From Halorhodospira halophila SL1 (GTDB lineage: Bacteria > Pseudomonadota > Gammaproteobacteria > Nitrococcales > Halorhodospiraceae), in contig NC_008789.1 of NCBI RefSeq assembly GCF_000015585.1, positions 840,001 through 872,000 on the forward strand: a stretch of DNA of 32,000 nucleotides. The letters are read 5' to 3'. This document shows, piece after piece, positions 5,431 through 23,604 of the stretch. The position numbers and the translations under genes are program-made. The notes below the pieces were generated by a model, which saw nothing but the letters and a program-made list of their open reading frames with translations, ran no database searches and was not told where the DNA came from. Positions within the stretch are counted from its first letter, which is position 1. Every line of letters begins with the position of its first letter.

Positions 5431-5471
5431 TGAAAAAAGGTCCTTTCGCGGATTGATCTTGCCCGCCACCA

Positions 5472-5571: not shown

Positions 5572-5775
5572 ATCAAGCCTGAATAGATAACAGTCGTAGA
5601 ATCAACTTTAAAACACAACACTCATACCCGGAGTGAAGGAGGATGTTGCGATGGGAACACCAGCACCCGAGTAGTGACGAGCGTGCTCTCCCAGGCGGGT
5701 GCCGCGTCACAAATCCGCTCGGGGAACCGGTTATTCAGAACCGACTATTTAAAACCTGTTGTTAAGGAGTTTTTA

Positions 5776-6594: not shown

Positions 6595-6657
6595 TGCGAA
6601 TAGCCGTGAAAACACTAATGTACTTTGAAATCTTAACAACAACAGGAAGAGAGCTTA

Positions 6658-8077: not shown

Positions 8078-8110
8078 GAACCGCTCGTGCCGATTTCCAG
8101 CAAGCGGCTC
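8078..8110 (-). ncRNA. Group II intron domain V (catalytic hairpin)
   Basis: The minus strand reads GAGCCGCUUGCUGGAAAUCGGCACGAGCGGUUC. The basal stem is GAGCCGCU/AGCGGUUC and contains the AGC triad. There is a 2-nt CG bulge and a distal stem capped by a GAAA-containing loop. Compare the consensus GAGCCGUAU...GAAA...ACGUACGGUUC. Confidence 0.85.
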
Positions 8111-8127
8111 CGCGAGTGATGGTTTCG

Positions 8128-8835
8128 CTAGATGGCAGGGCGTGCATAAGGCTTCATGATCCGCGGCTGTGGCAGAGGGAGCCGGTGAAGGAGGTGAGAG
8201 AAGCGCCACCACGGCATCTGGCCTTTCTGAGAGCGCCGGGCTAGCCAAAAGCGCCAGCGTCGCCGGACACCCTGGGAGAACGCATCCAAAGCGTCGTAGT
8301 TGCCCGTGACGCCGTAGTACGCATAGTGCCCCTTCATTTTACGGCAGAGCACTTCCCACTGCTCTTCCACGGGCCGGTGGCGGTTCTGCCGGCACCAGCG
8401 GTGGATGTTGCGCAGGCTCCGGCTCAAGCGGTCCTTGGCCGTCTTGGCCTTGACGACCCACTTGCCGCGCCGGGATCGCCCCCAGTAGAGGGTGAAACCG
8501 AGCAGGTCGAAGGTCTCCGGCTTAGGCCAGGGGCGCTTGACGTTCCGAGGTGGGCGCTGGAAGCCGATCAACCGGGTCTTCTCCGGATGCAGCTCCAGCC
8601 CATACTTCTCGAACCGCCTCGGGAGCACCTTGAGGACCCGCTCGGCGTCATCCCGGAGCTTGAAGAGCAACACGGCGTCGTCGGCATACCGGACCAGCTG
8701 GGCCGGACCGCGGAGCCGCGGCTTGGCCTGCGTCTCGAACCACTCGTCCAGTACCTCATGGAGGAAGACATTGGCCAGCAGCGGCGAGACCACCCCGCCC
8801 TGCGGGGTGCCCTCTCCGAGGCGCTGCCACTGTCC
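8128..8835 (-). pseudogene. Group II intron reverse transcriptase/maturase, N-terminally truncated
   Basis: The reading frame continues upstream of the annotated Met as GQWQRLGEGTPQGGVVSPLLANVFLHEVLD (RT-4). YADDAVLL (RT-5) and the maturase X-domain pattern HYAYYGVTGNYDAL are also present. The frame is cut exactly at the IS3 terminus at 8835/8836. Confidence 0.85.
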
Positions 8836-8865
8836 TGGTCTTACCCAGCGAACGTGGACACGGTG

Positions 8866-9732
8866 TTAGCTATTAAGCCGGGCCTCGTAGTCGTCCGGGG
8901 ATAGGTACCCGAGCGTGCTATGAAGACGCCGGCGATTGTAGTAGCCCTCAATGTATTCGAAGACGGCCTCACGCATCGATGCCCGCGTGGGGAATTTCTC
9001 GCCATGCAGGGCCTCGACTTTCAGGGAACGGAAAAAGCTCTCGTTGCAGGCATTGTCGTAGCAGCTGCCCTTCGCGCTCATGCTGCTGATCAGCCCGTAG
9101 TCGCTGATGAGCCTGCGGTACGCACGGGAGCAGTACTGGCTGCCGCGATCCGTATGGACGATGACCCCCGTGGGGTAGCCTCGCCGTTCCAGGGCCATCA
9201 GAAGCGCCTCACAGGCCAGTTCAGCGCTCATCTGATCGCGCATGGCCCAACCGATCACTTTGCGGCCACAAAGATCCAGGACGACCGCGAGATAGAGCCA
9301 CCCTTCGCCGGTCGCAAAATACGTGATGTCGCCAGTCCACTTCTGGTTCCGCTGCCCCGCTTCAAAGCACTGGGCCAAGTGATTGGGGGCGACCGGCAGG
9401 CTGTGAGCCGAGTTCGTCGTCACCTTAAACCGGCGTGACGTGCGTGCCCGGAGGCCCTGACGGCGCATGCTCCGGGCCACGGTTTTGCGATTGACCGACA
9501 CGCCTTGCCCGTCCAGCTCTCGCGTCAGTCGAGGCGCCCCAGAGCGTTGCCTGGAGTCTTCGAAGGCCTCTTGCACCTGTCCATCAAAGGCCTGCTGGCG
9601 TTCTTCCCGTGCGGCGCGGGCCGCCTTGTTCCGGCACCATGCGTAGAAGCCGCTGCGAGCGACGCCAAGGACGCGGCACATCGCCTGGACTCGGTGCTCG
9701 TGACGCTGCTGATCGATGAACGCGTACTTCAC
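8866..9732 (-). CDS. IS3-family transposase OrfB (DDE/rve integrase core), expressed as an OrfAB fusion by -1 frameshift
   Basis: WTGDITYF...LYLAVVLDLCGRKVIGW, HTDRGSQYCS and CYDNACNESFFRSLKVE give the D, D, E triad context of IS3-family transposases. Confidence 0.9.
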   Translation of the reverse strand: MKYAFIDQQRHEHRVQAMCRVLGVARSGFYAWCRNKAARAAREERQQAFDGQVQEAFEDSRQRSGAPRLTRELDGQGVSVNRKTVARSMRRQGLRARTSRRFKVTTNSAHSLPVAPNHLAQCFEAGQRNQKWTGDITYFATGEGWLYLAVVLDLCGRKVIGWAMRDQMSAELACEALLMALERRGYPTGVIVHTDRGSQYCSRAYRRLISDYGLISSMSAKGSCYDNACNESFFRSLKVEALHGEKFPTRASMREAVFEYIEGYYNRRRLHSTLGYLSPDDYEARLNS

Positions 9733-10043
9733 TTTTGGTTTTTCGCGAAGTACGCCGCGGCCTTTTTTGTGATCGACAGCTCCTCATTCGCTTCCGAGAG
9801 CTGACGTTTGAGCCGGGCATTCTCCTCGGCCAACTCCCGCTCTCGCTGCGAGCGGTCCGCTTCGTTCCGGGCCTTGGTGCGCCACTGGTAGATCTGCGCC
9901 GGCTGGAGCCCGAGTTGCTGCGCCGCCTCACTGACCCCGACGCGCTCGGCCAACGCCAGCGCCTCGTCTCGATAGGCCTGGCTGTAGCGTGTGCGCTTGG
10001 ATTTCGTCTTGGACTTGCTCATCTGAGTAGCTTGCCTCGTCAT
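9729..10043 (-). CDS. IS3-family transposase OrfA (HTH + leucine-zipper region)
   Basis: 104 aa. RTRYSQAYRDEALALAERVGVSEAAQQLGLQPAQIYQWR is the HTH_Tnp_1 pattern. It is followed by the coiled-coil LAEENARLKRQLSEANEEL and ends just after the frameshift site. Confidence 0.9.
   Translation of the reverse strand: MTRQATQMSKSKTKSKRTRYSQAYRDEALALAERVGVSEAAQQLGLQPAQIYQWRTKARNEADRSQRERELAEENARLKRQLSEANEELSITKKAAAYFAKNQK
9762..9768 (-). promoter_or_regulatory. Programmed -1 ribosomal frameshift heptamer A_AAA_AAG
   Basis: The minus strand reads ACA AAA AAG in the orfA zero frame (T-K-K). orfB is in the -1 frame and overlaps the orfA end. This is the classical IS3-family arrangement. Confidence 0.8.
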
Positions 10044-10097
10044 GGATCACCTCGTCGAATGGTAGCTATTGAGGTGTCCACGGTTGGTGGGCAAGAC

Positions 10098-10243
10098 CAT
10101 CGATGCGTGAGGCCGTCTTCGAATACATTGAGGGCTACTACAATCGCCGGCGTCTTCATAGCACGCTCGGGTACCTATCCCCGGACGACTACGAGGCCCG
10201 GCTTAATAGCTAACACCGTGTCCACGTTCGCTGGGTAAGACCA
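10098..10243 (+). mobile_element. 144-146 bp right-end fragment of a second copy of the same IS3 element, in inverted orientation
   Basis: 10098-10243 is the perfect reverse complement of 8836-8981 (checked base by base). It carries the IRR tip and the last ~33 codons of orfB, and it abuts the IRL tip of the intact copy. Confidence 0.85.
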
Positions 10244-10344
10244 TTCTGGCGGGCGTACTCCGCCTTGCTCAGACCAGACGCCGCCCAGCCCTGAACCACC
10301 TCGCGCCAGAAGGCACGCTTGCGCTGTTGAGTCCCGCCGGCCAT
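10244..10344 (-). pseudogene. N-terminal stub of a transposase accessory/HTH protein (IS66 TnpA-like or IS3 OrfA-like), truncated by the IS3 fragment
   Basis: The minus strand has GGAGGT followed 5 nt later by ATG. It encodes MAGGTQQRKRAFWREVVQGWAASGLSKAEYARQ, then runs straight into the IS terminus at 10243. The family assignment is tentative. Confidence 0.5.
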
Positions 10345-10710
10345 CGCCACCTCCGTGCTCGCGGATCAAAACACGGGGCCAAGCTAACCGGCGGGCGTCA
10401 CGCCCGATACACGGGGTTCACCGGACGTATATGGCCTCCTCCCGCAAGGGTCGATGAGCCGCCCCAGGGATCTGGCAAACACGGTGCGGTTGCAGTCGTA
10501 TATCCGGCTTTCTCGTGGAGCGTCACTGCGCTCCTGGCCCTCATGGAATCCGCGCACCGGCTGCCCATCACTTACACGGCCTCTGCTCGGGCGCTTGTCC
10601 GGTATCGGCTTTCACCGGTGCCGGTCCGACCTGTTTTGCCATGATTCGGGCTCATCGCCCGCAACCGCCATCGGCGGGGTTGCTCGGCAATGCTGGCCGA
10701 CCGCCCTCCG

Positions 10711-11769
10711 TCAGGCGGCGTGAGCCGGTGCCGGGTGATCGAACGGCGCATACGTGCCTTGATCCCGACACAGGGCGTAAGCGCGCCGGGCCAGCTTGTT
10801 GGCCAGCGCAATCGTCGCCTTGTTGCGACCGATCCGCGCCTCGGTGTTCATCGCCCACGCCTCCAATGGCGTGAGTTCCGCTTGCTGTGCGGCTCGTCGG
10901 CGCATTCGGTACAGCGCTGATCGAGCCCCATGAATCAGCTGTTTCCGTACGTACGGGTCGCCGCTGCGGGTGATTCCACCCAGGCACCTGCGCGAACCGC
11001 TGCTGTATTCCTTCGGAGTGAGCCCGAGCCAACCCGGGAACTGCCGGGCACTAATGAACTGGCGCAGGTCGCCGACCGCGCTGACCAGCGCGGTGCTCGT
11101 GATCGCCCCGATACCCGGAAGTTGACTGATGCGGGCCGCATCCTGATCCTCGCGCTGAGTGGCCTGCAGCTGCGCGTCGATGTCGGCGACTTGGTCATCC
11201 ATGCGCTGAATGTTTTCAATAAGGTTGTGCAGTATCTGGCGGATCTTGTCCGGCACGGGTTGCTCTGCATCCTCAAGCACCCCGGGGGTTCGACGCCGTG
11301 CCGCGTGGGCGCCTTGGGGTAGGGTCACCCCGTGCTCGCGCAGCAGCCCCCGTGCCTGGTTGATCCACGCCGTGCGATTTCGGATCAACTGCTCGCGGAC
11401 GCGGTGGAGTTGCTGCACGGCTTGCTGCTCCGCGCTCTTGACCCGGATTGCGTGAATGTCCGGGGCGCGGTGCGCCTCAAGCAGTGCAAGCGTATCCGCG
11501 CGGTCCGTCTTGTTTCGCCGCCGATAGCTGGCAACGTACTGAGCAGGGAGTAGCCGGACCTCGTGTCCCTGAGCACCGAGTCTCCGGCCCCAGTGGTGCG
11601 CCATACCGCAGCCCTCGAGGACGAAGACACTTGGCGGCTGCTCCCCGATGAAACGCTCGAACTGCCCACGGCTCAGGCGACGGTGCTGCGGCTTCGTCCC
11701 CAGCCCGTCCGCGACGGCAACCTCGAAGACGTTCTTTGCCAAGTCAACGGCGACAATCTGCTGCGGCAT
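10711..11769 (-). CDS. IS110-family transposase (DEDD N-domain + Transposase_20 C-domain)
   Basis: IVAVDLAKNVFEVAV, VFVLEGCGMAHHWGRRL, NKTDRADTLALLEA, LPGIGAITSTALVSAVGDLRQF...RQFPGWLGLTPKEYSSG and GITRSGDPYVRKQLIHGA are all present. I chose ATG 11769 (MPQQ...) because GGAGGA lies 5 nt upstream; the ORF track starts at 11787. Confidence 0.9.
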   Translation of the reverse strand: MPQQIVAVDLAKNVFEVAVADGLGTKPQHRRLSRGQFERFIGEQPPSVFVLEGCGMAHHWGRRLGAQGHEVRLLPAQYVASYRRRNKTDRADTLALLEAHRAPDIHAIRVKSAEQQAVQQLHRVREQLIRNRTAWINQARGLLREHGVTLPQGAHAARRRTPGVLEDAEQPVPDKIRQILHNLIENIQRMDDQVADIDAQLQATQREDQDAARISQLPGIGAITSTALVSAVGDLRQFISARQFPGWLGLTPKEYSSGSRRCLGGITRSGDPYVRKQLIHGARSALYRMRRRAAQQAELTPLEAWAMNTEARIGRNKATIALANKLARRAYALCRDQGTYAPFDHPAPAHAA

Positions 11770-12087
11770 GACTTCCTCCATCACCATCCGTCGTGGGCCC
11801 TCTCCGTTACTCTAATGGTCGGAGAGAGGGGCGGGAGGAGGCCATCCCATCACGTACGTTCAATGGAGTCGAAGCGGCCGCTGGATGAGCCCCGGCGGTA
11901 GCTTCCTATTGCCAGATGCCCGTCTCACAGCCACCACGACCGCAGAACGATGCCTTCAGCAAGCCGTTGCGCCCCTCAGCGGACCCACTCACGCGCTGGG
12001 GTGGTCAGCTTGGCCGCGTCGTGAATACCGTGGGCTGAGATGCGATCAGTCCCAATTTTGACACATATTGTAACTATGGAGGACTGA

Positions 12088-13077
12088 ATGACGATTCTGG
12101 TGACCGGTGGTGCCGGGTATATCGGCAGCCACATGGTGCGCCGCCTGCTGGCGGATGGGTACGAGGTGGTGGCCCTGGACAATCTCTCCACCGGCCATCG
12201 CTGGGCGGTCCCGGAGGAGTGCCTGGAGGTTGGCGATCTGCAGGACCGGGACGCGTTGTCGACCCTGTTTCAGCGCTACCGCTTCTCGGCGGTGGTGCAT
12301 TTCGCAGCCAGCAGTCTAGTGGGGGAGTCGGAGGAACGGCCGCTGGAATACCACGAGAACAATGTCGGCGGTACTCTCAATCTGCTGCGCGCCTGCCTGG
12401 AGCTGGGGACGACGCGATTGATCTTCTCCTCATCGGCAGCGGTGTACGGGGCGCCGTCCGAGTCGCCGATCCCGGAGTCAGTGGCGCCGGCGCCCATCAA
12501 TCCCTACGGGGTAAGCAAGATGGTGTGTGAGCGCATGCTGGCCGATGTTTCCGTGGGGACGTCACTGCGCTTTGTGAGCCTGCGCTACTTCAATGCTGCG
12601 GGCGCTGATCCCAAGGGGCGGCTGGGGGAGTGCCATGAGCCAGAGACGCACCTGATCCCGCGACTGCTGCAGGTGGTCTCGGGGCGTTCGGCCGGTTTCA
12701 CCCTGTATGGCGACGACTACCCAACTCCGGACGGCACCTGTATCCGCGACTACATCCATGTGGAGGATTTGGTGGAGGCCCACGTGATAGCACTGGCGCA
12801 CCTAGAGGCGGGAGGCGAATCACGCACTTTCAATTGTGGGTATGGTCGGGGTTATTCTGTACGAGAGGTTATCGAAGTAGCACGCGCGGTAACTGGACAT
12901 CCTTTGCCAGTGGATGTTGGCCCCCGGCGCCCGGGTGATCCATCGCAGCTCGTGGCCGACGGATCGGCTCTACGGGAGACCCTTGGCTGGCGACCCCGTT
13001 ACGAATCACTAGAAACCATTGTGAGGGACGCTTGGCGGTGGGAGTCCAGACTCCAAGGAATGACGCAGTCCCGTTAA
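12088..13077 (+). CDS. galE: UDP-glucose 4-epimerase
   Basis: [15 protein letters not shown] Rossmann motif and the catalytic YGVSK (YxxxK) are present, along with [30 protein letters not shown] and [15 protein letters not shown] lies upstream of the ATG. Confidence 0.9.
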
Positions 13078-13162
13078 TGATACTACTAACAACCCTTTTT
13101 AGACCTCATGTTATTCGATTGTTAGCGGTTTGCAAGATCTATTACTTAGGTGGCCCAATAAA

Positions 13163-14263
13163 ATGTGCAGCAATGTTATTGTCTATTGTTCACACAGCGC
13201 AGCGTATACAAGCTCACCCCTTAATGAACATTACATCTATAGAAAATCACACTTCCCGAGAGAACAGCACTACTACATTGCTATTAATACATGCAAAGAA
13301 GAAAAGCGGTTTAAGAGCAACGAGAAATTCCGGATATTTGAATGCAAAGGAAACGATAAAAAACTCTTTGAAGCACTTGAAAATATAATCGATGCACACA
13401 CCCCTTCATCCAATATCATAATTCATAATCATGACCCAAAAGCGACAAAAAAAATCGCACATTTTATTAAAAAAAGACACCACAATATCCCTTTAGTGTA
13501 TACAATCCATAACTCCTATAACAAATTTAGTGCTCGGAAGAAATGCCTCACAAATCTATCCATCCTGCATAGTAGCAAATCCGTATTCTGCGGGCGCGCG
13601 GCTTATGAAGCATATCCTTATCGACATCTTTTTAAACAAAAAACAACATTCATACCGAACGGGGTTGATATAGATCGCATTGACTCTACTCTCAACCGCA
13701 GGGAAGGCACATCAAAGCCGAACGATTATCGTATAAAAGTGGCGACAATCGCGAAGAACAATGGGCAGAAAAACCTGCCACACCTACTGAAGTTAGCTAG
13801 CGAACTGCCAAAAGAAATGCATCTTAGTGTAATTGGCCCGCTTTCCGATGAAGACAAAAACAAAATCGAGTCTCTCGACACAAAGAACGTGAGGCACGTA
13901 GGTGTGCTTGAGCGCGACGAAGCACTCCTCGCATTGTCACAGAACGATATATTTGCCTCTTCTTCTTTTTACGAAGGCTTGCCTGTTGCGGTGCTTGAAG
14001 CTATGGCTATTGGATTGCCCGTAGTGCTATCACGTATCCCCCCTCATTTAGAGCTAAGCTCTAAGGGAGACGGACCCATTGTTGCTGAATGCGACCTCTC
14101 TCTCTGGAAACAAAAAATACGCGAACTGAACGAGCTGAAGCAACAAAAAAATAATGGGCTACAGGAGTTGGGCCAACTAAACCGCAAACTTGTGGAAGAG
14201 CACTTTAGCTTGGCAGCAATGCACAAAGCTTACAGTTCTGTTTATAAGGAATTACTCTATTAA
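13163..14263 (+). CDS. Glycosyltransferase family 4 (GT-B)
   Basis: The C-terminal EX7E region SSSFYEGLPVAVLEAMAIGLPVVLSRIPPHLEL is present. AT-rich. The ORF is open from TTG 13130; I chose ATG 13163, and the start is uncertain. Confidence 0.75.
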   Translation: MCSNVIVYCSHSAAYTSSPLNEHYIYRKSHFPREQHYYIAINTCKEEKRFKSNEKFRIFECKGNDKKLFEALENIIDAHTPSSNIIIHNHDPKATKKIAHFIKKRHHNIPLVYTIHNSYNKFSARKKCLTNLSILHSSKSVFCGRAAYEAYPYRHLFKQKTTFIPNGVDIDRIDSTLNRREGTSKPNDYRIKVATIAKNNGQKNLPHLLKLASELPKEMHLSVIGPLSDEDKNKIESLDTKNVRHVGVLERDEALLALSQNDIFASSSFYEGLPVAVLEAMAIGLPVVLSRIPPHLELSSKGDGPIVAECDLSLWKQKIRELNELKQQKNNGLQELGQLNRKLVEEHFSLAAMHKAYSSVYKELLY

Positions 14264-14279
14264 AAAGCATACTTTCGGT

Positions 14280-15035
14280 TTGACTTATGGGTGGCCTAAA
14301 ATTGAACAAAAACCTGTAACTGTTGATGTAGTCGGTTTTTCTGGCAGCGGAAAAACCATGTTAATTGATCTTTTAAAGAAAAAGTTTGAGCAGAATGGCT
14401 ATTTTGTCGATAGCTCGAGCCCTTACAAAGGAAAAACTGTTGATTCGCTTACATGCACAAGAGCGGCCAACGTTAATGTCTACCGCCTTTTACGTAGCTC
14501 CGCAACGCGGATCACCAAACCAGTTACTCTCTATGTAGCTATAGTTTTTTGGTTTTATTCAATATCCAGGCGTGTTTATCGTTTTAGGCATGCTTATAAC
14601 TTTGCATTGCGCGCATTGTCGCGCAGGACGCACAGCGGGAGAATAGTTCTAGAAGACACGCCCAGAACGTCAATTTTGCCGCTTTTTCTTCCACCTGTTG
14701 ATGGTCGTGGTTGGCGGGGAGGCATCCATCGATTATTGCATGCCGACTTTTTTCCCGATGCTATATTGGTAATTGACCTCCCGCCAGATTTAATGCGCAG
14801 CCGGGTTCTACAAAGAGAACGCCCTGGGGACAAGCACTCAGCGTTAGACGAATCAACATTTATCGATCTTGCAAATGCGTATAAGAAAAATATCAACACG
14901 TTAACTCGTTATCTTAAAAATAACACACGGACTACCGTTATTAAGATTGATGGCACACAAGATATTGAGGCCATCGCTAATAGTGCAGCTCAACAGGTAT
15001 TGTCTCGCTTGAGAAAAGCCGACAAAAACATTTGA
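14280..15035 (+). CDS. P-loop NTPase, kinase-like (family unresolved)
   Basis: Walker A VDVVGFSGSGKTMLIDLL is present. A later ILVIDLPPDLMRSRVLQRER resembles the lid region of small nucleotide/APS-type kinases, but I do not see the LDGDN motif of CysC. The ORF is open from TTG 14190, which would overlap the GT4 gene by 74 nt. TTG 14280 was chosen, and the start is uncertain. Confidence 0.55.
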   Translation: MTYGWPKIEQKPVTVDVVGFSGSGKTMLIDLLKKKFEQNGYFVDSSSPYKGKTVDSLTCTRAANVNVYRLLRSSATRITKPVTLYVAIVFWFYSISRRVYRFRHAYNFALRALSRRTHSGRIVLEDTPRTSILPLFLPPVDGRGWRGGIHRLLHADFFPDAILVIDLPPDLMRSRVLQRERPGDKHSALDESTFIDLANAYKKNINTLTRYLKNNTRTTVIKIDGTQDIEAIANSAAQQVLSRLRKADKNI

Positions 15036-15087
15036 AGAATCACTAACAGATAATGCACGATGTTGCCTCTGTTTTTCCGATCGTTTT

Positions 15088-18000
15088 TTGCGAGCGGCCC
15101 CGATGGTTCCACAGCTAACTGACTATAGTACGCTTATAATCCTCGGCGCCGGCGCCCCCCACCGTGGGGACCTTCCAGCCGCTCTGCGCGAGCCGCGCTC
15201 CGGCACTTCGGTCCTGCAGTGGCTGCTGGACGCGTCCGGCTGCTCGCTCGAGTGCACTACCTTCGTCGCTGGGTACCAAGCAGACGCAATTCGAGAGCGT
15301 TATCCCGATTTGGCGGTGGTGGAAAACCGGGATTGGGAGCACACGGGGAGTGGCGCTTCACTCCTGGCGGCGCCTTTTGGTACGAACTCCCCCCTGCTGG
15401 TCTGCTACAGCGACATCCTCTTCCGTCAGACAGTGCCCACGGCGCTGGCGCGCTGCGAGGCCGATGTGGCAGTGGCCTGGGACAGCGCCTGGGACCACCG
15501 CTACGCCGGGCGCGAGGCTGCGGACCTGGCCCGCTGCGAGAAGGTGATGGTCAACGGCGAGCGCATCGAGCGCCTCGGCGCCGACCTGCCGGTGGACTGG
15601 GCCGACGGCGAGTTCATTGGCCTGGTGCGCTTCTCCCCGCGCGCCCTGGAGTGGCTGGAGCGCCTGCGCGCGGACGGCCCCGAGAGCCTGCGCCAGCGCC
15701 ACCTCTCCGAATACATCGAATACCTGCGTGCGGCCGGCCTTTCGGTCGCCGGCGTCGATGTCGCTGGAGACTGGGCCGAGTTCAACGAACCACGGGACAT
15801 CGCCCACTTCATTCTCGGTACCAAGGCCGAGACATTGGGCCGGCTGCGCGGCATGGTCCGCCACGCGGTCATTCAGGACCAAGTCGTATGCACCGTCGCC
15901 GAGTGGCAAGCCGATCGCGCGGCGGTGATGGACCAGGTGCGCCAGCGCTTCACCGGAGAGCGGCTGGTTGTCCGCTCCAGCGCCCGTAGCGAGGACTCCT
16001 TCCACCATTCGAACGCTGGCGGCTACGACAGCCTGCTCAACGTCGATCCTCGGAATGGCCTTGAAGAGGCCGTCGAGCAAGTCATTGCTTCCTATGGGAC
16101 GGCGGATGACGACGACCAGGTGCTCATCCAGCCCATGGTCACCGACGTGGCCATGAGCGGCGTCGCCTTTACCCGTACCCTGGAGCACGGGGCACCGTGG
16201 TATGTGGTCAACTACGAGACCGCCGGCGACACCGAAGCCATCACCAGCGGGGCTAGCGGTGACCACCGCACGCTGCTGCTGCGCCGTGGCGCGGAACCCG
16301 AAACGCTGCCGGAGCCACGGCTGGGGCCGCTGGTGGCCGCACTGCACGAGATCGAGGCCCTCCTCGGTTACGACGCCCTGGACGTGGAATTCGCGCTCGA
16401 CCCCGCCGGCTCGGTGCACATCCTCCAGGTCCGACCCATCGCGGTAGATCGCAAGGGTAGCGACCTGGACGATAGTGCCTTCGACGCCGCCATGGCTGCC
16501 GCCCACGCCCGATGGGAGACGCTAACCCCGGCCCCACCCCACCTGCCCGGGGATCCGGCGCCGCTCTATGGCGTGATGCCCGACTGGAATCCGGCGGAGA
16601 TCATCGGCACCGCTCCGGGCGCCCTGGCCGCCAGTCTCTACCGTCACCTGATCATGGACGAGACCTGGGCCATCCAGCGCGCCGAGTACGGTTACCGCGA
16701 CGTGCGCCCGGCTCCACTGCTTGTGGAGTTCGCTGGCCACCCGTATGTGGATGTGCGTGCCAGCTTTGCCTCGTTCCTGCCGGCGGAACTCCCCGACGAT
16801 TTGGCCGGCCGGCTGCTGAGCTTCTACCTGGAGTGGCTGCGCCAGCGCCCGGAGCTCCACGACAAGGTGGAGTTCGAGGTGGTGCCCACCTGCCTGGCCC
16901 CCGGCTTCGAGGGCTGGGAGCGGCGCCTGCAGGAGGACGGCGGCTTCAGTACCGACGAGGTCCGCGCCCTGCGCGAGGGGCTACGCCGGATCACCGCCGG
17001 CGCCTTCCACCGCTGCGAGGACGATCTGGCGCAGATCGAGACCCTGCGCCAACGCTTCCAGGCGATCGAGGGCGATACCCGGCTGGCACCACTGGAGCGC
17101 GCACGGATCCTACTGGACGACTGCCGGCGGCTTGGGACACTGCCGTTCTCCCATCTGGCTCGCAGCGGTTTCGTCGCCGTAACACTGCTGCGCGAAGCCG
17201 AGGCGTGCGGGATGATCAGCGCAACCGCCCGGGAGAGCTTTCTCTCCACGGTCCGAACGGTGAGCCACCGGCTCACGGCGGACGCACGGGCCACCGCCAC
17301 CGGGGAGATGAGCGAGCACGCCTTTATCGCTCGTTACGGCCACCTGCGCCCGGGCACCTATGACATCACCTCGCCCCGTTACGACGCCGATCCAGAGCGC
17401 TTCCTCCGGCCGCTGGTGGAGCACGCCCGGGAGGCTGCCATGGAGGAAGAAAACCCTGGGCCCTGGCAAGCCGAGCGCGCAGCCTTCTTCTCGGCACTGG
17501 CCGAGCTCGGCCTGCCGGCCGACCCGGAGCGGGTCGAGACCTTCCTGCGTCAGGCCATCGAGGGGCGGGAATACGCCAAGTTCATCTTCAGCCGCAACCT
17601 GTCCGCGGCGCTGGAGGCACTGGCTGAGGCGGGAGCACAGTACGGTCTGGAGCGCGCCCAGGTCGCGCACCTGCCGCTGGACGAGCTACTCGCCCTGCGC
17701 TCCGCGGCGCGTTCTGATGAGGCGATCGCCCGTCATCTGAGGATGCGCGCCGATGAGGAGGCCGAGGCCCGGCGGGTGGCAGGGGCCTGCGAGCTACCGC
17801 CGCTGATCACCGGCCAGGCGGACCTGGATGCCTTCGTCATTGGTGCCGACCGACCCAACTTCATCGGCTCCGGCTGCATCACGGCGGACTGCCTGGACCT
17901 CGGCGATCAACCGGCCGATGCGGACCTAGACGTGTCCGGGCGGATCGTCCTCATCCCTCAGGCCGATCCCGGCTACGATTGGCTCTTCGGCCAGGGGATC

Positions 18001-18171
18001 ACCGGGCTGGTGACCCTCTACGGCGGCGCCAACTCGCACATGGCCATCCGCGCTGCGGAATTCGGTCTACCGGCCGCCATCGGCATTGGCGAGCAACGCT
18101 ACCGTGAATTGGCCCAAGCGCGAGTTGTCGAGCTTGCCCCGGCCAACGGCATCCTGCGGGTGGTCCGATGA
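15088..18171 (+). CDS. Three-part fusion: N-terminal nucleotidyltransferase-like domain + PPDK_N (ATP-grasp) domain + C-terminal PEP-utilizer phosphohistidine swivel domain; candidate L-glutamine kinase (Cj1418-like)
   Basis: The N-terminus (about 250 aa) has LIILGAGAPHRGDLPAAL and is paralogous to the 18803 gene. The middle has GTKAETLGRL...LVVRSSARSEDSFHHSNAGGYDSLLNV. The C-terminus has GLVTLYGGANSHMAIRAAEFGLPAAIG (His codon at 18037-18039). No TIM-barrel PEP/pyruvate domain is present. The start is either TTG 15088 or ATG 15103. Confidence 0.8.
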   Translation: MRAAPMVPQLTDYSTLIILGAGAPHRGDLPAALREPRSGTSVLQWLLDASGCSLECTTFVAGYQADAIRERYPDLAVVENRDWEHTGSGASLLAAPFGTNSPLLVCYSDILFRQTVPTALARCEADVAVAWDSAWDHRYAGREAADLARCEKVMVNGERIERLGADLPVDWADGEFIGLVRFSPRALEWLERLRADGPESLRQRHLSEYIEYLRAAGLSVAGVDVAGDWAEFNEPRDIAHFILGTKAETLGRLRGMVRHAVIQDQVVCTVAEWQADRAAVMDQVRQRFTGERLVVRSSARSEDSFHHSNAGGYDSLLNVDPRNGLEEAVEQVIASYGTADDDDQVLIQPMVTDVAMSGVAFTRTLEHGAPWYVVNYETAGDTEAITSGASGDHRTLLLRRGAEPETLPEPRLGPLVAALHEIEALLGYDALDVEFALDPAGSVHILQVRPIAVDRKGSDLDDSAFDAAMAAAHARWETLTPAPPHLPGDPAPLYGVMPDWNPAEIIGTAPGALAASLYRHLIMDETWAIQRAEYGYRDVRPAPLLVEFAGHPYVDVRASFASFLPAELPDDLAGRLLSFYLEWLRQRPELHDKVEFEVVPTCLAPGFEGWERRLQEDGGFSTDEVRALREGLRRITAGAFHRCEDDLAQIETLRQRFQAIEGDTRLAPLERARILLDDCRRLGTLPFSHLARSGFVAVTLLREAEACGMISATARESFLSTVRTVSHRLTADARATATGEMSEHAFIARYGHLRPGTYDITSPRYDADPERFLRPLVEHAREAAMEEENPGPWQAERAAFFSALAELGLPADPERVETFLRQAIEGREYAKFIFSRNLSAALEALAEAGAQYGLERAQVAHLPLDELLALRSAARSDEAIARHLRMRADEEAEARRVAGACELPPLITGQADLDAFVIGADRPNFIGSGCITADCLDLGDQPADADLDVSGRIVLIPQADPGYDWLFGQGITGLVTLYGGANSHMAIRAAEFGLPAAIGIGEQRYRELAQARVVELAPANGILRVVR

Positions 18172-18806
18172 GGCGCAGGGTTGCCGTCAGCCAGCGCTGC
18201 GATGCCGTGCCCGGGCGTGACGAGGTGCGCGACACCCTCGACGTGCGTTTGGCGACGCTGCTCTGGGATTTGGGGTTTCTGCCGGTTCCCATGGCCAGCC
18301 ACATCACCGATCGTGCTGCCTACTTTGAGGCCGTTGAGCCCGAGGCCGTGGTCCTTAGCGGCGGGAACAACATTGGCGAGGCCCCCGAGCGCGATCACTT
18401 AGAGATGGCCCTGCTTGATCACGCGGCCGCTTTTAGGCTGCCCGTAGTTGGGATCTGTCGCGGCATGCAGATGATGAACCACTACCAGGGTGGCGCCCTG
18501 CGGGCGGTCGCCAGGCATGTCGCGGTGCGCCACCGGGTCAGCGGCCCGCTGGCAGGGGCAGACCGCCGAGTGGTGAACAGCTACCACGACCAGGGCATGC
18601 TCGACGCCGACCTCGGTGACGACCTTGAGGCCATGGCCTGGTCCGAGGACGGCGCAGTGGAAGCGCTGCGCCACCGGGAGTGGCCGTGGCTCGGGATCAT
18701 GTGGCACCCGGAGCGCGACGCGCCCGTCGCTGAGTCTAACCGAAAGCTAATTCGAAACCACCTGGAAGGCCTACCTTTGGACCTTTCCCACGGAGAGACC
18801 TCATGA
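18168..18806 (+). CDS. Class-I glutamine amidotransferase-like hydrolase (peptidase C26 / PuuD-like); candidate gamma-glutamyl-phosphoramidate hydrolase (Cj1417-like)
   Basis: The nucleophile elbow VVGICRGMQMMN (Cys codon at 18456-18458) and GIMWHPER (His-Glu) are present. ATGA overlaps the upstream stop. Confidence 0.8.
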   Translation: MRRRVAVSQRCDAVPGRDEVRDTLDVRLATLLWDLGFLPVPMASHITDRAAYFEAVEPEAVVLSGGNNIGEAPERDHLEMALLDHAAAFRLPVVGICRGMQMMNHYQGGALRAVARHVAVRHRVSGPLAGADRRVVNSYHDQGMLDADLGDDLEAMAWSEDGAVEALRHREWPWLGIMWHPERDAPVAESNRKLIRNHLEGLPLDLSHGETS

Positions 18807-19552
18807 AAGCGATCATCCTGGCCGCTGGACAAGGTACCCGCCTGCGGCCCCTGACCGACGACAAGCCGAAGTGCCTCGTTGAGTTGGCGGGCAAATCCCT
18901 GCTCGACCACCAACTTGATGTGCTGCGCGCCGCCGGGGTCGATGACATCCACGTGGTCGCTGGCTACCGCGCCGATCAGCTGGAGCGACCCGGGTTCACC
19001 CGCCACATTAACGAGCGTTATGCCGAAACCAACATGGTCGGCACGCTCTTTGCTGCCGAGTCGGTGATGACTGGGGAGAGCGACCTGATTATTAGCTACG
19101 GCGACATCGTCTACGAGCCTCGGGTCCTGGCGGCGCTGCAAGCGGTGGACGCCCCGATCGGACTGGCGGTGGACCGCGAGTGGCGGCGCTACTGGGCGGC
19201 GCGCATGGACGACCCGCTGGCCGACGCCGAGACCCTGAAGCTCACCGATGGCGACCGGGTCGTGGAGTTGGGCAAGAAGCCGGAGGGCTACGCGGACATC
19301 CAGGGCCAGTACACCGGCCTCATCAAGGTCCGCGCCGACCATGTGCGACGGCTGCCCGAAGTCTGGCGCGCCATGGACCGGCACGCCACCTACGACGGCA
19401 AGGATTACGACAACATGTACATGACCAGCTTCATCCAGCACCTCATCGACATGGGCTGGGAAGCGCGCGCCGCCTTCATCGACAACGGCTGGGCGGAAGT
19501 GGACTGCGAGGCCGATCTCGCCGCAGCGACCGGGTTCTGGAGTGCGGGATAA
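18803..19552 (+). CDS. Sugar/phospho-X nucleotidyltransferase (LicC/cytidylyltransferase-like); candidate phosphoramidate cytidylyltransferase (Cj1416-like)
   Basis: MKAIILAAGQGTRLRPLTDDKPKCLVELAGKSLL is the canonical GxGxR signature, followed by YGDIVY. ATGA overlaps the upstream stop. Confidence 0.8.
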   Translation: MKAIILAAGQGTRLRPLTDDKPKCLVELAGKSLLDHQLDVLRAAGVDDIHVVAGYRADQLERPGFTRHINERYAETNMVGTLFAAESVMTGESDLIISYGDIVYEPRVLAALQAVDAPIGLAVDREWRRYWAARMDDPLADAETLKLTDGDRVVELGKKPEGYADIQGQYTGLIKVRADHVRRLPEVWRAMDRHATYDGKDYDNMYMTSFIQHLIDMGWEARAAFIDNGWAEVDCEADLAAATGFWSAG

Positions 19553-19582
19553 CGTGCTCAACCAACAATCAAAGGACACGCG

Positions 19583-21247
19583 ATGAGTCAAGCCGACACC
19601 GAGAACAAATTGCGTACCCGCTCTCCCGACGAGCTCTCTTTGCAGATGGAGGGACTCATTGCGCTCCGTGAGGTCCTCAGTGAGCACCTTGATCGTTGGT
19701 TTCTCAGCGGGGGAACGCTCCTCGGCGCTTATCGAGATGGCGACTTCATTCCATGGGATTGGGACGTTGAGGTGACGGTGCTTACCGAGGAAGCGCAACC
19801 GAAAGAGGGCGCACTTCTTAAAGCACTCCTCGAGGCCGGATTCACCATCACCTCATCCGATTCGTCGCATGAGAATTTTAAAATCGTCGCCTCCGGCTGG
19901 GGAACCGAGTACGAGATCCTCGGCCGGTACCTAGCCGAAGATGGCAACGGACGCATCCGGTTGATGACTGAAGTGCCCGCCCGCTTCTTTGAACAACATG
20001 AGCCTGTGACCTTTCGTGGGCACACCTTCCCCGCACCTAGCCCTACAGATGACTTTCTGGAAGCACTCTATGGAGACTGGCGAACACCGCTGAAGTCAGC
20101 CGATAAAAAGACCTACTTTTCTGGGACTGCATACCGCAAGAACACGCACTCTAGTCCTTCTGCGCGTACCGCCCAGATCCGCAAGCTGCTAGTCCCCGCA
20201 CAGGTGCGGGAGTTTCCTGAGGTTGGAAGGGCTGCCCTTGATCGCTTCCAGTCCTGGGATCAAGAACTGGGCTGGTGTAATCAGCCCAATGTCACGAAGG
20301 TCGATCAATCTGATCGATCGGCCGGCACCAAGAAAGACGCCCCCGGACTGGCCGTCTTCTCCACGGACGAGACGGGCTCCCGCAGTTGTCGCCACCCGAC
20401 CGAAAAACCAGATGTCAGCTGCTACGGCGACGGCTACTGCATGTGCCGGGACGTTCATGATCATGAGACCTTCCCTTGGTTCCTAGGCGACCGGAGGGGC
20501 ACCCGTGTCTCCAACTACGGCGTTGGCAACTACGGGCTTGACCAAGCCCTCCTCCGGCTGCGGCGAGACTACCGTAACGATCCGGCCGACACGGTCGTCC
20601 TTGCCGTCACCTCCATCACCATGGCGCGCTGTGTGTCCGTGTACCGACACTACCTAGAGCCCGGTAACCTCTTCGCGATCAAGCCACGGTTCCGGCTTTC
20701 CGAACAGGATGGATCACTGCAGACCGTTGATTACCCGCTCAACGACAAGCACGATCTCTTGAGGCTGGAAAAATATGCTGACTTCTTTCGCGGGAACGAC
20801 GAGCACTATAGCTTTTGGCGAAGGAGTCGAGTTAACTACTACACGCACCAATTACCAAAAAAGATCGGCGCTCGCTTTGGGGTCACTTCTTTACCCGCCC
20901 CTTACAAGACCTTTGAGTACGAGATTAGCTTCTGGCGGAGCCACGAGTGTTTATTTTTTGGGATGATGGGTTACTATCAGGCCTTGGCCGACAAACATGG
21001 GTTCCGGCCGATTTTTCTGCTCCAGCACCACAACCGAAGCCTTGAGTACCTGAAGGAACGACCGTCACACGAACTGCCCTGGGCCTCGGTACTGTCTAAG
21101 GCCGCGGACCACTTCCCGGGCATAACCTTCTTGGATGAAGCTAATATCTTTGCCGACTATCCGAATATTGACGAGCTGTACATAAGATCGCACCACTCTG
21201 CGCATGCGAATCGTATGATCGCCGATTATTTGAACAACTTTCTATGA
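19583..21247 (+). CDS. LicD-family phosphotransferase fused to a C-terminal SGNH/GDSL-like domain
   Basis: The N-terminus has FLSGGTLLGAYRDGDFIPWDWDVEVTV and FLEALYGDWRTP, which are LicD motifs. The C-terminus has SCYGDGYCMCRDVHDHETFPWFL...VSNYGVGNYGLDQALLRL and a terminal SHHSAHANRMIADYL, resembling SGNH blocks I, II and V with Gly where the block-I Ser is expected. AAAGGA lies 6 nt upstream of the ATG. Confidence 0.7.
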   Translation: MSQADTENKLRTRSPDELSLQMEGLIALREVLSEHLDRWFLSGGTLLGAYRDGDFIPWDWDVEVTVLTEEAQPKEGALLKALLEAGFTITSSDSSHENFKIVASGWGTEYEILGRYLAEDGNGRIRLMTEVPARFFEQHEPVTFRGHTFPAPSPTDDFLEALYGDWRTPLKSADKKTYFSGTAYRKNTHSSPSARTAQIRKLLVPAQVREFPEVGRAALDRFQSWDQELGWCNQPNVTKVDQSDRSAGTKKDAPGLAVFSTDETGSRSCRHPTEKPDVSCYGDGYCMCRDVHDHETFPWFLGDRRGTRVSNYGVGNYGLDQALLRLRRDYRNDPADTVVLAVTSITMARCVSVYRHYLEPGNLFAIKPRFRLSEQDGSLQTVDYPLNDKHDLLRLEKYADFFRGNDEHYSFWRRSRVNYYTHQLPKKIGARFGVTSLPAPYKTFEYEISFWRSHECLFFGMMGYYQALADKHGFRPIFLLQHHNRSLEYLKERPSHELPWASVLSKAADHFPGITFLDEANIFADYPNIDELYIRSHHSAHANRMIADYLNNFL

Positions 21248-22212
21248 CTTCAGAATCACCCAGCACTCCCAAAATCATCGTCCTTGGTACAACGTACTCT
21301 GGATCAGGCGCGGTCTATGACTATCTAGCCAACCGAGGGGACGGGTACGATCCACTCGCCGGGCACGAATACCTCCTCCCGCAGATACCTTATGGCCTGA
21401 TGTGTCTGCGCTCTGCAATAGGTGAATCGTTCCATCACGCTATAGCAGACCATGCCGTCAGGGCTTTTCTCTCCGTTACGGAACAACTGACACGCACAGG
21501 GACTCGGACTCGATATGGAAAGGGATATGGCGTACTCCTGCCGCGCTTCCTAGAGGAGGTTAGGCAGCTTGTGCACGATGCCACTGCCGCTGAATTCCCG
21601 TTACAGCTAGAATGGAGAAAAGCGGAAGAGACGCGGCTGAGGCGCACCGTCAATTGGGTGTTGGCCCGATTTCTCAGATACAGGTCACCCCCTGAGAACA
21701 CCTGGCTCCCGGTCCCTGAAAAGGAGTTCGTTCAACTTACGCAGCGTATGCACGACCGCCTCTTCGTGATGCCTTCAGGCACCTCGGCCAGTTTCACCCT
21801 TCTCAACCAGTCCGGCTCTGGCTGGAACCCGGTGGCGTCTACCGACTTTTTCTCACACAGAAAGGTCGTCCTGGTAACAAGAGACCCACGCGATCAGTTT
21901 GCCGAGTTGAAAACTTTTAAGCGTGCGCGTAACGTCGATGAGTTCGTCAAATGGTATCGTGCCATGCAACAGCGAATTGAGATCGAGCACCCGGATTTGC
22001 ACATTGTGCGCTTTGAAGATTTTGTTTTAGATCATCATGACGCCAAATCAAGCTTGTGCGTTTTTTCTGGGATTGAAGCAGATGTTCCAAGTTCATACTC
22101 GACCGAGATGTCAACTTTAAACATTTCAAAGTATCGACAAACGCTCTCCTCAGAAGAGATAGAAAAACTCGAAACGGAGCTTGGCCAGCACATCCGGGAA
22201 CGAGTTCAATGA
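21244..22212 (+). CDS. Sulfotransferase-fold protein
   Basis: KIIVLGTTYSGSGAVYDYL is 5'-PSB loop-like, VVLVTRDPRDQFAEL is 3'-PB-like, and IVRFEDFVLD is present. ATGA overlaps both neighbours. Confidence 0.65.
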   Translation: MTSESPSTPKIIVLGTTYSGSGAVYDYLANRGDGYDPLAGHEYLLPQIPYGLMCLRSAIGESFHHAIADHAVRAFLSVTEQLTRTGTRTRYGKGYGVLLPRFLEEVRQLVHDATAAEFPLQLEWRKAEETRLRRTVNWVLARFLRYRSPPENTWLPVPEKEFVQLTQRMHDRLFVMPSGTSASFTLLNQSGSGWNPVASTDFFSHRKVVLVTRDPRDQFAELKTFKRARNVDEFVKWYRAMQQRIEIEHPDLHIVRFEDFVLDHHDAKSSLCVFSGIEADVPSSYSTEMSTLNISKYRQTLSSEEIEKLETELGQHIRERVQ

Positions 22213-22448
22213 AGGTTCTATTCTTCATCGGCTCCCTCACCGGCGGTGGAGCCGAGTGCGTCACTGTTGGCCTAGCCAACTACCTCGTCCGGAACGGCCA
22301 CCAGGCCAGTCTCGTGACGATGCACAACACCGACCGGGACTTCTACATCCCCGATGACGGCGTTGGCCGGGTCTGCCTCAATCCCGCCGGCGAGAGCCTG
22401 GGCGTTGACAATTTAACCGCTAAGATGTCTGGGTTCAGGGCATTTTGA
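22209..22448 (+). pseudogene. 79-aa N-terminal stub of a GT4 glycosyltransferase
   Basis: MKVLFFIGSLTGGGAECVTVGLANYLVRNGHQASLV matches the start of GT4 enzymes. Compare PPIAFFVPSVIGGGAQRVFVTLANTLV in the 23762 gene. It stops after 79 codons, 1 nt before the next ATG. Confidence 0.6.
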
Positions 22449-22449: not shown

Positions 22450-23604
22450 ATGCGCATCGCCTACCTCTCCAGCTCCACCATCCCCTCCGACTCAGCAAAC
22501 AGCATCCACGTCATGAAGATGTGCCAGGCCATCGCACGGCTCGGCCATGACGTACGGCTCATTGCGCCGGATAGGCTGGACACTCTGCGCGCGCAGGCCG
22601 CTACCTGCCCTCACGTTTTCTATGGCGTCGAAGACAACTTCACGATACACCGCGAGCACTGGCCTTCGATCAAGGGCCGAGGGTATTGGTATGGCTTGCG
22701 TGCCGCCCGAGCGGCGAAACGGTGGGGCGCGGAGCTCGCGTACGGCCGCAACACCGCAGCCTGCTTCTTTGCGGCTCAGCTGGGCCTGCCCGTACTGTAT
22801 GAATCGCACTTCCCGATCAACGACTCGGGGCGTCTTCAACGGGCACTCTTCCGGCGCTTGATCCGCAGCCGGCACTTCCGGGGCCTGGCTGTTATCACTC
22901 ATGCGTTAAAAGAGCACTACGAGCACCACTGGCCCGAACTGAAGGGCCGGATCACTGTTGCCCCCGACGGCGCGGATCCCTTGGATGACTCGATGGAACC
23001 TATACCGCTCGCTTCCGATGAGAAGCGGTTACAGGTGGGCTATGCCGGCAACCTATACCCCGGAAAAGGCATGGAGGTCGTCCTGCCCCTGGCGCGCCAA
23101 TGCCCTTGGGCGGACTTCCACGTCATTGGCGGCACCGCAGAGGACCTATCCGCTTGGCTCGGAAGTGAACACCGACCGTCTAACCTTCGGTGCCATGGGC
23201 GCCAGCCCCCCAGCGAAGTGCCTCGCTACCTCCTCGCGATGGATGTCTTACTGCTGCCGAACCAGAAGCACGTAAGTACCCAAGGGGGCAACACCGACAT
23301 CGGGCGTTGGACCTCGCCTTTAAAAGCTTTTGAGTACATGGCCGCCGGGCGCGCGATTCTTTGTTCCGATGTGCCGGTCTTGCGCGAGGTCGCGGTACAC
23401 GGACGGAACGCCCTGCTTTGCTCCCCCGACCAGGTTGATGACTGGGCGACCGCGCTTGAAAGCCTTCGTGACGATCCGGATTTACGCAAGCACCTGGGGA
23501 AGAGGGCGCGCCGGGAGTTGGAAGAAACATACACGTGGACGGCACGGGCTGAGCGTGCCCTAACGGCTACTCCTGGTACGGATGGCCACCCATCGCGCCG
23601 CTGA
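22450..23604 (+). CDS. Glycosyltransferase family 4
   Basis: MRIAYLSSSTIPSDSANSIHVMKMCQAIARLGHDV is the N-terminus. The C-terminal region has SPLKAFEYMAAGRAILCSDVPVLREV (EX7E-type). Confidence 0.75.
   Translation: MRIAYLSSSTIPSDSANSIHVMKMCQAIARLGHDVRLIAPDRLDTLRAQAATCPHVFYGVEDNFTIHREHWPSIKGRGYWYGLRAARAAKRWGAELAYGRNTAACFFAAQLGLPVLYESHFPINDSGRLQRALFRRLIRSRHFRGLAVITHALKEHYEHHWPELKGRITVAPDGADPLDDSMEPIPLASDEKRLQVGYAGNLYPGKGMEVVLPLARQCPWADFHVIGGTAEDLSAWLGSEHRPSNLRCHGRQPPSEVPRYLLAMDVLLLPNQKHVSTQGGNTDIGRWTSPLKAFEYMAAGRAILCSDVPVLREVAVHGRNALLCSPDQVDDWATALESLRDDPDLRKHLGKRARRELEETYTWTARAERALTATPGTDGHPSRR

Follow-up and report, generated by a model that had tools for sequence, protein, structure and literature searches.

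We analyzed a 32,000-nucleotide stretch of DNA from Halorhodospira halophila SL1 (NC_008789.1, positions 840,001-872,000), referred to here as the window; all coordinates are positions in the window unless another contig is named. The region is a surface-polysaccharide locus, as judged from the Pfam content of its open reading frames (ORFs). Three consecutive genes at 15088-19552 are predicted from their sequences to encode a module for the synthesis of cytidine diphosphoramidate (CDP-NH2, or CDP-amidate) of the kind formed by Cj1418, Cj1416, and Cj1417 of Campylobacter jejuni, and the next gene encodes a LicD-type enzyme that may transfer unmethylated phosphoramidate from this donor to the polysaccharide. 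We consider the chances of this combined reading to be about even. Homology is the basis on which we predict the substrate of the kinase, the group that is transferred, and a P-N bond in the product. Because H. halophila can be cultivated, the prediction is directly testable.

The genes for a kinase, a hydrolase, and a nucleotidyltransferase (NT) had been described in an earlier note on this DNA as three consecutive, translationally coupled ORFs, and their coordinates matched exactly, with ATGA stop/start overlaps at the kinase/hydrolase and hydrolase/NT junctions. A gap of 30 bp separates the NT gene from the gene encoding the LicD-type protein (LicD-SGNH), which in turn overlaps the gene for a sulfotransferase-like protein (ST3) by a further ATGA. 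Two plasmid loci served as Campylobacter-type proxies for the C. jejuni proteins. The locus on an Azospirillum lipoferum plasmid contains a PRK05541 adenosine 5'-phosphosulfate (APS) kinase, a class-I S-adenosylmethionine (SAM) methyltransferase, an unfused kinase, a hydrolase, and a LicC-like NT, which is the content of cj1415-cj1420. The deltaproteobacterial plasmid of Smac51 carries a second complete locus with this content.

The kinase matched Pfam PPDK_N at residues 279-374 and PEP-utilizers at residues 951-1010, and residues 457-900 were all-helical in an AlphaFold2 (AF2) model with a predicted local distance difference test (pLDDT) score of 85. A PEP-utilizers_C barrel, the TIM barrel for phosphoenolpyruvate (PEP)/pyruvate, was found neither by Pfam nor in the AF2 model, in agreement with the earlier call of a PPDK_N and phosphohistidine-swivel kinase lacking this barrel. 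The swivel histidine, His984, was invariant. The nearest solved fold to the AF2 model was rifampin phosphotransferase (RPH; E 4e-22). With the NCBIfam model NF004508/PRK05849, residues 236-1024 scored 854 bits, above the cutoff of 501, and covered positions 4-786 of the 789 in the model, whereas the models for PEP synthase, RPH, and prodigiosin ligase gave 36-58 bits; in this comparison, which had been set beforehand, the kinase did not group with PEP synthase or antibiotic phosphotransferases. NF004508 carries the name 'hypothetical protein'. We infer that it is the Cj1418 family model from the cj1415-1420-like context of the Azospirillum kinase, which scored 932 bits, and from the JGI label 'glutamine kinase' on several close homologues. 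The kinase domain was 41% identical to the unfused Azospirillum kinase, and the window protein is predicted to be a member of the L-glutamine kinase family (Cj1418 family, EC 2.7.3.13).

The window kinase is unlike the single-module Cj1418 architecture of approximately 780 residues in having 235 extra residues at the N terminus, a domain that was missed when the protein was first described as a plain PPDK_N and swivel kinase. Pfam NTP_transf_3 gave a score of just 21.8 bits for this LicC-like domain. Residues 16-238 matched a 'phosphocholine cytidylyltransferase' of a Pseudomonas plasmid, and the fold in the AF2 model resembled CTP:inositol-1-phosphate cytidylyltransferase (TMt 0.76). Identity to the stand-alone NTs was 26-27%, as in a distant paralogue. 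In all 184 of 184 fused kinases the 'xGxRL' stretch of the signature was deleted and the signature lysine was replaced by Ala, Ser, or Thr, although Y-x-D, D, and W motifs further along the domain were retained. We read the domain as a nucleotide-binding pseudo-enzyme domain, expected to bind a cytidine nucleotide and not to catalyze transfer. The possibility that it is the true Cj1416 equivalent, fused to the kinase for channeling, was rejected: identity to the orthologue was 41% for the stand-alone NT and 26% for the N-terminal domain, and the loss of the signature Arg and Lys in every fused kinase also contradicts it. The label 'choline kinase' used by some sources was likewise rejected; the kinase fold is that of PPDK/His-swivel proteins, and we judged the label to be carried over from the LicC-like domain. 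The kinase and LicD-SGNH are each 100% identical to an nr entry of H. halophila. The public nr entry for the kinase is 953 residues long; the start chosen there cuts off the N-terminal G-A-G motif, and public annotation thereby hides part of the extra domain. Another gene caller places the start at ATG 15103, giving 1022 residues.

The second protein of the module belongs to the class-I amidotransferases by Pfam (Peptidase_C26/GATase), and its Cys97/His180/Glu182 triad, which had been noted as intact, was kept in 73 of 73 homologues. Its top NCBIfam model was NF045546 (gamma-glutamyl-CDP-amidate hydrolase, Cj1417) at 100.5 bits, 46 bits above the next family; the TrpG, PabA, GuaA, and PuuD models scored no higher than 54 bits, and the protein did not group with amidotransferases of the PuuD/TrpG type. 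It was 40% identical to the Azospirillum counterpart and is predicted to be a gamma-glutamyl-CDP-amidate hydrolase. The third protein matched Pfam NTP_transf_3 and NTP_transferase, and the GxGxR motif reported earlier extends to a signature, G9-x-G11-x-R13...K23, that was conserved in 65 of 65 orthologues. Its best solved relative was LicC (PDB 1jyk, E 3e-15). No curated family model matched; full-length identity was 41% to the NT of the Azospirillum locus and 39% to that of the Smac51 locus, and the protein is predicted to be a CTP:phosphoglutamine cytidylyltransferase. The earlier placement of the kinase and hydrolase in the Cj1418 and Cj1417 families is supported by the NF004508 score and the top rank of NF045546, and the NT is a probable member of the Cj1416 family; all three proteins were 40-41% identical to the Azospirillum triad over nearly their whole length.

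The next gene had been called LicD-family, and its Pfam match (Table 1) and FKRP-like fold agree with that call; the fusion of the LicD domain to an SGNH-like domain had gone unnoticed. The LicD domain resembled FKRP (6kaj) in sequence (E 1e-5) and in fold (E 3e-8, AF2 model with pLDDT 91), and its D59-W-D61 motif was conserved in the family alignment. FKRP structures have been solved with CDP-ribitol and CMP bound. By analogy with its family, the LicD domain would use a CDP-X donor and release CMP, and it is predicted to be a CDP-amidate:glycan phosphoramidate transferase. The SGNH-like domain gave fold matches to TesA, GDSL lipases/esterases, and CgnD, and its relatives carry PF13472. The block-I nucleophile serine is replaced in the window by Gly284 (G-D-G); among 43 family members this position was Ser in 34 and Gly in 8. 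An SGNH-like domain alone adjoins the module in Legionella septentrionalis, a Kofleriaceae metagenome-assembled genome (MAG), and a JGI contig. ST3 scored 23.9 bits with Pfam Sulfotransfer_3, below the cutoff of 27, and its homologues in Marinobacter reached E 2e-10; ST3 has a GTTYSGSG P-loop and an RDPRD motif. It could act in sulfation or be part of the decoration step. LicD-SGNH had no BLAST similarity to the candidate transferases of the Azospirillum and Smac51 loci.

In the proposed route, the kinase would convert glutamine to glutamine phosphate, the stand-alone cytidylyltransferase would add CMP from CTP to form CDP-L-glutamine, and the hydrolase would cleave the gamma-glutamyl amide bond to yield glutamate and CDP-NH2, each step being assigned from family membership. 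CDP-NH2 would then pass straight to the LicD/FKRP-type domain, without 3'-phosphorylation or methylation, as the LicD mechanism and comparative genomics suggest. A sugar hydroxyl of the repeat unit would attack the beta-phosphorus and CMP would leave, giving sugar-O-P(O)(O-)-NH2. For C. jejuni, the NCBIfam names, the titles of papers, and a paraphrase in the Borg preprint give the order as Cj1418 kinase, then Cj1416 cytidylyltransferase (CDP-L-glutamine), then Cj1417 hydrolase (CDP-amidate). The earlier note had placed the hydrolase before the cytidylyltransferase, which the enzyme names and the paraphrase in the preprint correct, as they have the phosphoglutamine cytidylyltransferase acting first.

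Relatives of the module were sought in one genome per species, and the fused-kinase variant was found in at least 588 species genomes. The best 80 of these at least 588 relatives all had the fused architecture and came from Gamma- and Alphaproteobacteria, Actinomycetota, Planctomycetota, Bacteroidota, Chlamydiales, Cyanobacteria, Spirochaetes, SAR86, Pelagibacteraceae, and Legionella. The variant was also present in Pseudomonas and Providencia, and its spread covers more than 10 phyla. A complete kinase ORF was available in 77 loci; the NT was present in all 77 and the hydrolase in 76, usually directly after the kinase, so that the linkage of the three genes is conserved. With a strict threshold, 42 of the 77 loci had a TagF-like gene (CDP-glycerol glycerophosphotransferase family) no more than 300 bp away, and 49 had one within 5 kb. 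Among 61 immediate downstream genes, Pfam identified Glyphos_transf in 21, Sulfotransfer_3 in 6, and LicD in 1, which was the window itself. The TagF-like arrangement was also seen in Providencia, in Pseudomonas japonica, and on a Vibrio alfacsensis plasmid. A CDP-alcohol phosphatidyltransferase gene is directly upstream of the kinase in SAR86, and in an Oceanospirillum MAG the genes flanking the module include small LicD genes and a TagF-like gene. Flanks of 3 kb or more on both sides were available for 53 loci, and 42 of these had a TagF-like, LicD, or CDP-alcohol phosphatidyltransferase gene within 5 kb. In each of these three classes the beta-phosphate of CDP-X is attacked and CMP is released. 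That the partners belong to three unrelated CMP-releasing classes, one of which includes a TagF-like enzyme (FtaD) shown to transfer a phospho-amino acid from a CDP-amino acid, is in our view the strongest argument for direct use of the module's product as a CDP donor. The fused-kinase variant is tied to CMP-releasing phosphotransferases rather than to a 3'-kinase route. In its broad form, the proposal is that the fused kinase, hydrolase, and NT make CDP-amidate and that phosphoramidate is moved directly by TagF-like, LicD, or CDP-alcohol phosphatidyltransferase enzymes with 3'-phosphorylation skipped; we advance it tentatively.

A survey of gene neighborhoods for LicD, suggested in the earlier note, confirmed the association in part: LicD was rare and a TagF-like enzyme was the usual partner, and the LicD-SGNH/ST3 pair occurred with the module in three distant loci, which supports a link that is not chance adjacency. 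In Logan contig L095 the genes for kinase, hydrolase, NT, LicD-SGNH, and ST3 are in the same order as in the window, with a kinase 73% identical. In a TARA contig (L096) and Pelagibacter nBUS_49 (L090), the module and an ATP-binding cassette (ABC) exporter gene are followed by a LicD-SGNH gene that overlaps the ST3 orthologue. Identity of the ST3 orthologue was 53% in L095 and 38% in L090. After the LicD-SGNH/ST3 pair, each of the three loci has genes for a 190-residue KGGHHRAA-motif (ParB/Srx-like) protein and a 231-residue SAM methyltransferase (L095, 10675-11939; L096, 12874-14123; L090, 13850-15093). No trace of either protein was found in the window. The kinase of L090 (1-2823) was called as three pieces of 456, 572, and 144 residues, which may reflect a pseudogene or assembly frameshifts.

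For the O-methyl phosphoramidate (MeOPN) of C. jejuni, Cj1415 is the cytidine diphosphoramidate 3'-kinase, Cj1419/1420 are methyltransferases, and Cj1421/1422 are transferases. The earlier note had found no CysC-type 3'-kinase and no obvious methyltransferase, and targeted searches of the window gave the same result. No window ORF matched PRK05541 or APS_kinase in profile scans, and tblastn with three Cj1415-type kinases gave no match in the window. Among the window ORFs scanned, Pfam found no methyltransferase domain, and tblastn of the window with five methyltransferases, taken from the Campylobacter-type loci and including the 231-residue protein, was also empty. The window resembles the C. 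jejuni system in its three families, gene order, translational coupling, and surface-polysaccharide setting, and in keeping the catalytic His, the Cys/His/Glu triad, and the GxGxR...K signature. It differs in lacking the Cj1415-type kinase and the methyltransferase, in the degenerate LicC-like domain on its kinase, and in having a LicD/FKRP-type transferase fused to an SGNH-like domain as the neighboring transferase.

Other known systems share parts of this arrangement. In the Type A flagellin glycan of C. difficile, FtaB makes CDP-threonine and the TagF-like FtaD was shown experimentally to be a CDP-N-methylthreonine:GlcNAc phosphotransferase (bioRxiv 10.64898/2026.02.12.704994). There, too, a LicC-like cytidylyltransferase makes a CDP-amino-acid-derived donor next to a CMP-releasing phosphotransferase, the same logic as in most fused-type loci. 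However, that donor is an O-phosphoester and the product a phosphodiester, the pathway lacks a His-swivel kinase and an amidotransferase-like hydrolase, and the window has LicD where C. difficile has a TagF-like enzyme. The LicC/LicD phosphocholine and FKRP/fukutin ribitol-phosphate systems likewise have a LicC-like NT and a LicD/FKRP-like DxD transferase, but the window donor is predicted to come from a glutamine-kinase/hydrolase pair. RPH and PEP synthase/PPDK share the ATP-grasp and swivelling phosphohistidine domains with the window kinase, which differs from them by its lack of a TIM barrel and by the scores given above.

Several findings weigh against the proposed LicD route. Just 1 of 61 loci has LicD as the next gene downstream, and the relatives that share the LicD block (L095, L096, and L090) also carry the SAM methyltransferase and may make a methylated product. 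Some fused-type loci, namely those of Rheinheimera (L024 and L028) and Wenzhouxiangella (L075), have a PRK05541-type, Cj1415-like kinase, and L075 has a methyltransferase as well; because of these loci, the fused architecture alone does not exclude a 3'-phospho route. Further points of this kind arise with ST3, an equally recurrent partner that could be the real transferase. The module would still make CDP-amidate in that case, and ST3 would install the group, either by itself or following the action of a non-orthologous 3'-kinase, in parallel with the 3'-phospho-CDP-amidate donor of C. jejuni, which resembles 3'-phosphoadenosine 5'-phosphosulfate; LicD-SGNH would add another phospho-X or an acyl group. 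Loci of five Marinobacter species and of Legionella septentrionalis have ST3-like genes at the side of the module but no TagF-like or LicD gene, ST3 retains the P-loop and RDPRD motif of the 3'-phosphate-binding type, and proteins with sulfotransferase domains are found in the Azospirillum locus. The Marinobacter loci represent one genus, however, and are not independent, and the second sulfotransferase gene of the locus (5674-6594) fits ordinary sulfation. An orphan P-loop ORF that immediately precedes the kinase gene could be taken for the 3'-kinase, but it is of foreign composition and occurs in none of the related loci, and no APS-kinase-family gene was found in the window. In addition, Pfam scans of the window revealed neither a choline kinase or transporter nor genes for making ribitol phosphate or glycerol phosphate, nor any other CDP-X route that could feed LicD, and a CMP-releasing phosphotransferase partner is the general rule across loci. 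We regard transfer by ST3 as unlikely.

The fused variant could also have diverged in chemistry. It might activate a substrate other than the glutamine amide, or stop at another CDP-X such as CDP-glutamine or the CDP derivative of another amino acid or amide; the substituent would then be a phosphodiester without free P-NH2, and the amidotransferase would supply or remove nitrogen elsewhere. All 184 fused kinases bear the extra N-terminal domain, and their chemistry may differ for that reason; the usual partners of the module normally move phospho-alcohols, with FtaD moving phospho-N-methylthreonine. The kinase nevertheless passes the Cj1418 family model over its full length, at 854 bits compared with 932 bits for the unfused Campylobacter-type orthologue. 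The hydrolase, at approximately 100 bits, falls under the curated Cj1417 equivalog cutoff of 250, but this cutoff appears narrow because the orthologue encoded in the complete, Campylobacter-type locus of Azospirillum reaches just 107 bits. Both hydrolase and NT are as near to the Campylobacter-type orthologues as those are to one another, and with a gamma-glutamyl-type hydrolase present in 76 of 77 loci, a pathway lacking a glutamine-derived intermediate is difficult to envisage. The 'choline kinase' label, which could be cited for another substrate, fits only the LicC-like domain. Altered chemistry appears doubtful to us. A different concern is that module and transferase were brought together by accident, with the module serving another target (lipopolysaccharide [LPS] core or a lipid) and LicD-SGNH/ST3 being a separately acquired glycan cassette. 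The base composition of the locus is a mosaic and there are four mobile-element remnants; the GC content at third codon positions (GC3) of LicD-SGNH (65%) and ST3 (55%) is below that of the module (79-85%), and a LicD-SGNH homologue occurs without the module nearby in L091. On the other side are the conserved gene order in L095, the same genes sharing a locus in the TARA contig and Pelagibacter, several LicD and kinase matches on contigs of equal size (29986, 7607, 26802, and 31919), and the short NT-LicD gap of the window. Such an accident seems very unlikely. We also considered glutamine-dependent amidation leading to a CDP-glyceramide-type donor, with the kinase as carboxylate activator, and found no support for it.

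If direct transfer of phosphoramidate from CDP-NH2 is correct, bacteria would commonly carry P-N bonds on their glycans and lipids, and such bonds would not be a Campylobacter curiosity. A review describes phosphoramidate-decorated sugars as known so far from Campylobacter only (PMC6429109), and another terms the glutamine kinase "C. jejuni-specific" (PMC9561416). In the literature, the LPS of Xanthomonas campestris and of Shewanella MR-4 is known to bear unmethylated phosphoramide; the route would give such groups a testable origin and could be the missing biosynthesis in Xanthomonas and Shewanella. CDP-NH2 would be a new donor specificity for the LicD, TagF, and CDP-alcohol phosphatidyltransferase families, and many environmental and host-associated bacteria would have a surface group that is acid-labile, easy to overlook, and of relevance to phage and immune recognition. 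We found no description of a link of LicD or TagF-like enzymes to phosphoramidate, or of the fused kinase, in the searchable literature, which did not cover subscription sources.

Table 1. Coordinates of the module, its conserved residues, and neighboring genes in the window
Feature	Position	Strand	Description
Kinase ORF	15088-18171	+	1027 aa; probable true start ATG 15103
LicC-like nucleotidyltransferase-fold domain of kinase	15088-15792	+	Residues 1-235; degenerate NTP-transferase signature
Glutamine-kinase-family domain	15793-18171	+	ATP-grasp (PPDK_N), helical substrate domain, phosphohistidine swivel
Kinase swivel histidine	18037-18039		His984
Hydrolase ORF	18168-18806	+	212 aa
Hydrolase triad	18456-18458, 18705-18707, 18711-18713		Cys97, His180, Glu182
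NT (cytidylyltransferase) ORF	18803-19552	+	249 aa
NT signature residues	18839-18841, 18869-18871		Arg13, Lys23
LicD-SGNH ORF	19583-21247	+	554 aa
LicD/FKRP-type phosphotransferase domain	19583-20182	+	Residues 1-200; Pfam LicD E 2e-11
LicD DxD motif	19757-19765		Asp59, Asp61 (D59-W-D61)
SGNH/GDSL-like domain fused to LicD	20183-21247	+	Residues 205-554; AF2 pLDDT 91
SGNH block-I position	20432-20434		Gly284
ST3 (sulfotransferase-like) ORF	21244-22212	+	322 aa
MsbA-type ABC exporter	1097-2899	+	Pfam ABC_membrane and ABC_tran
MurA-like (EPSP_synthase fold)	3101-4501		Approximately 53% GC
MurB-like	4483-5430		Approximately 53% GC
Sulfotransfer_2 gene	5674-6594		38% GC
Glycosyltransferase family 2 (GT2)	6658-7587		
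Group II intron reverse transcriptase fragment	8128-8793	-	
IS3-type element	8866-9732	-	
IS110	10711-11787	-	
Orphan P-loop ORF	~14316-15035	+	Directly upstream of kinase; Pfam AAA_33 31 bits; low GC

The locus also contains several GT2 and GT4 glycosyltransferase genes, a GalE-like epimerase gene, and a gene for a Wzy-like membrane protein. The MsbA-type ABC exporter is probably part of the same system as the module. It was 46% identical to the ABC protein encoded next to the module in the TARA contig, and its GC3 was 95%. The exporter and kinase genes are approximately 12 kb apart, and the intervening DNA (2900-15087) holds glycan genes of mixed or low GC together with mobile-element remnants. 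Because an ABC gene is directly upstream of the kinase in the related JGI contig of P0166, this adjacency may be ancestral and may have been split by insertions in the window. Judging from the paralogues of MurA and MurB, the glycan may contain a sugar with an enolpyruvyl or lactyl ether.

The orphan P-loop ORF is probably not part of the system. GC3 was approximately 40% for the two genes just upstream of the module, and 40% for this ORF compared with 79-85% for the module. A search among 1.84 billion representatives returned only the ORF itself and one remote relative, and it was not found in any of the 80 related loci. As a hidden analogue of Cj1415 it was rejected as a family member, since it is an orphan whose similarity to Cj1415-type APS kinases is confined to the Walker A motif, with 33 columns aligned.

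Two other types of cluster were observed among the relatives. On Agrobacterium vitis plasmid pRvVAT039a (L093, 3100-13030) and in Allorhizobium ampelinum S4, an unfused triad is followed by genes for a LysE exporter and a CDP-alcohol phosphatidyltransferase; genes for an aminoacyl-tRNA synthetase-like protein, a TauD dioxygenase, and an asparaginase are found beside the triad. Such a gene set looks more like one for a small-molecule or lipid phosphoramidate than like a glycan locus. In Pseudomonas (L006, L014, and L061) and approximately 10 MAG loci, a recurrent cassette outside O-antigen loci encodes, in order, a sulfatase-family membrane protein of approximately 700 residues, the fused kinase, hydrolase, NT, a TagF-like protein, and a YidC-like (60KD_IMP) protein; in this setting the same donor may serve a periplasmic or lipid target.

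Downstream of ST3 in the window, a 79-residue ORF (22209-22448) overlaps the ST3 stop codon, has weak similarity to the N-terminal part of GT4 enzymes, and stops immediately ahead of an intact GT4 gene (22450-23604). A lost glycosyltransferase has probably left this ORF behind.

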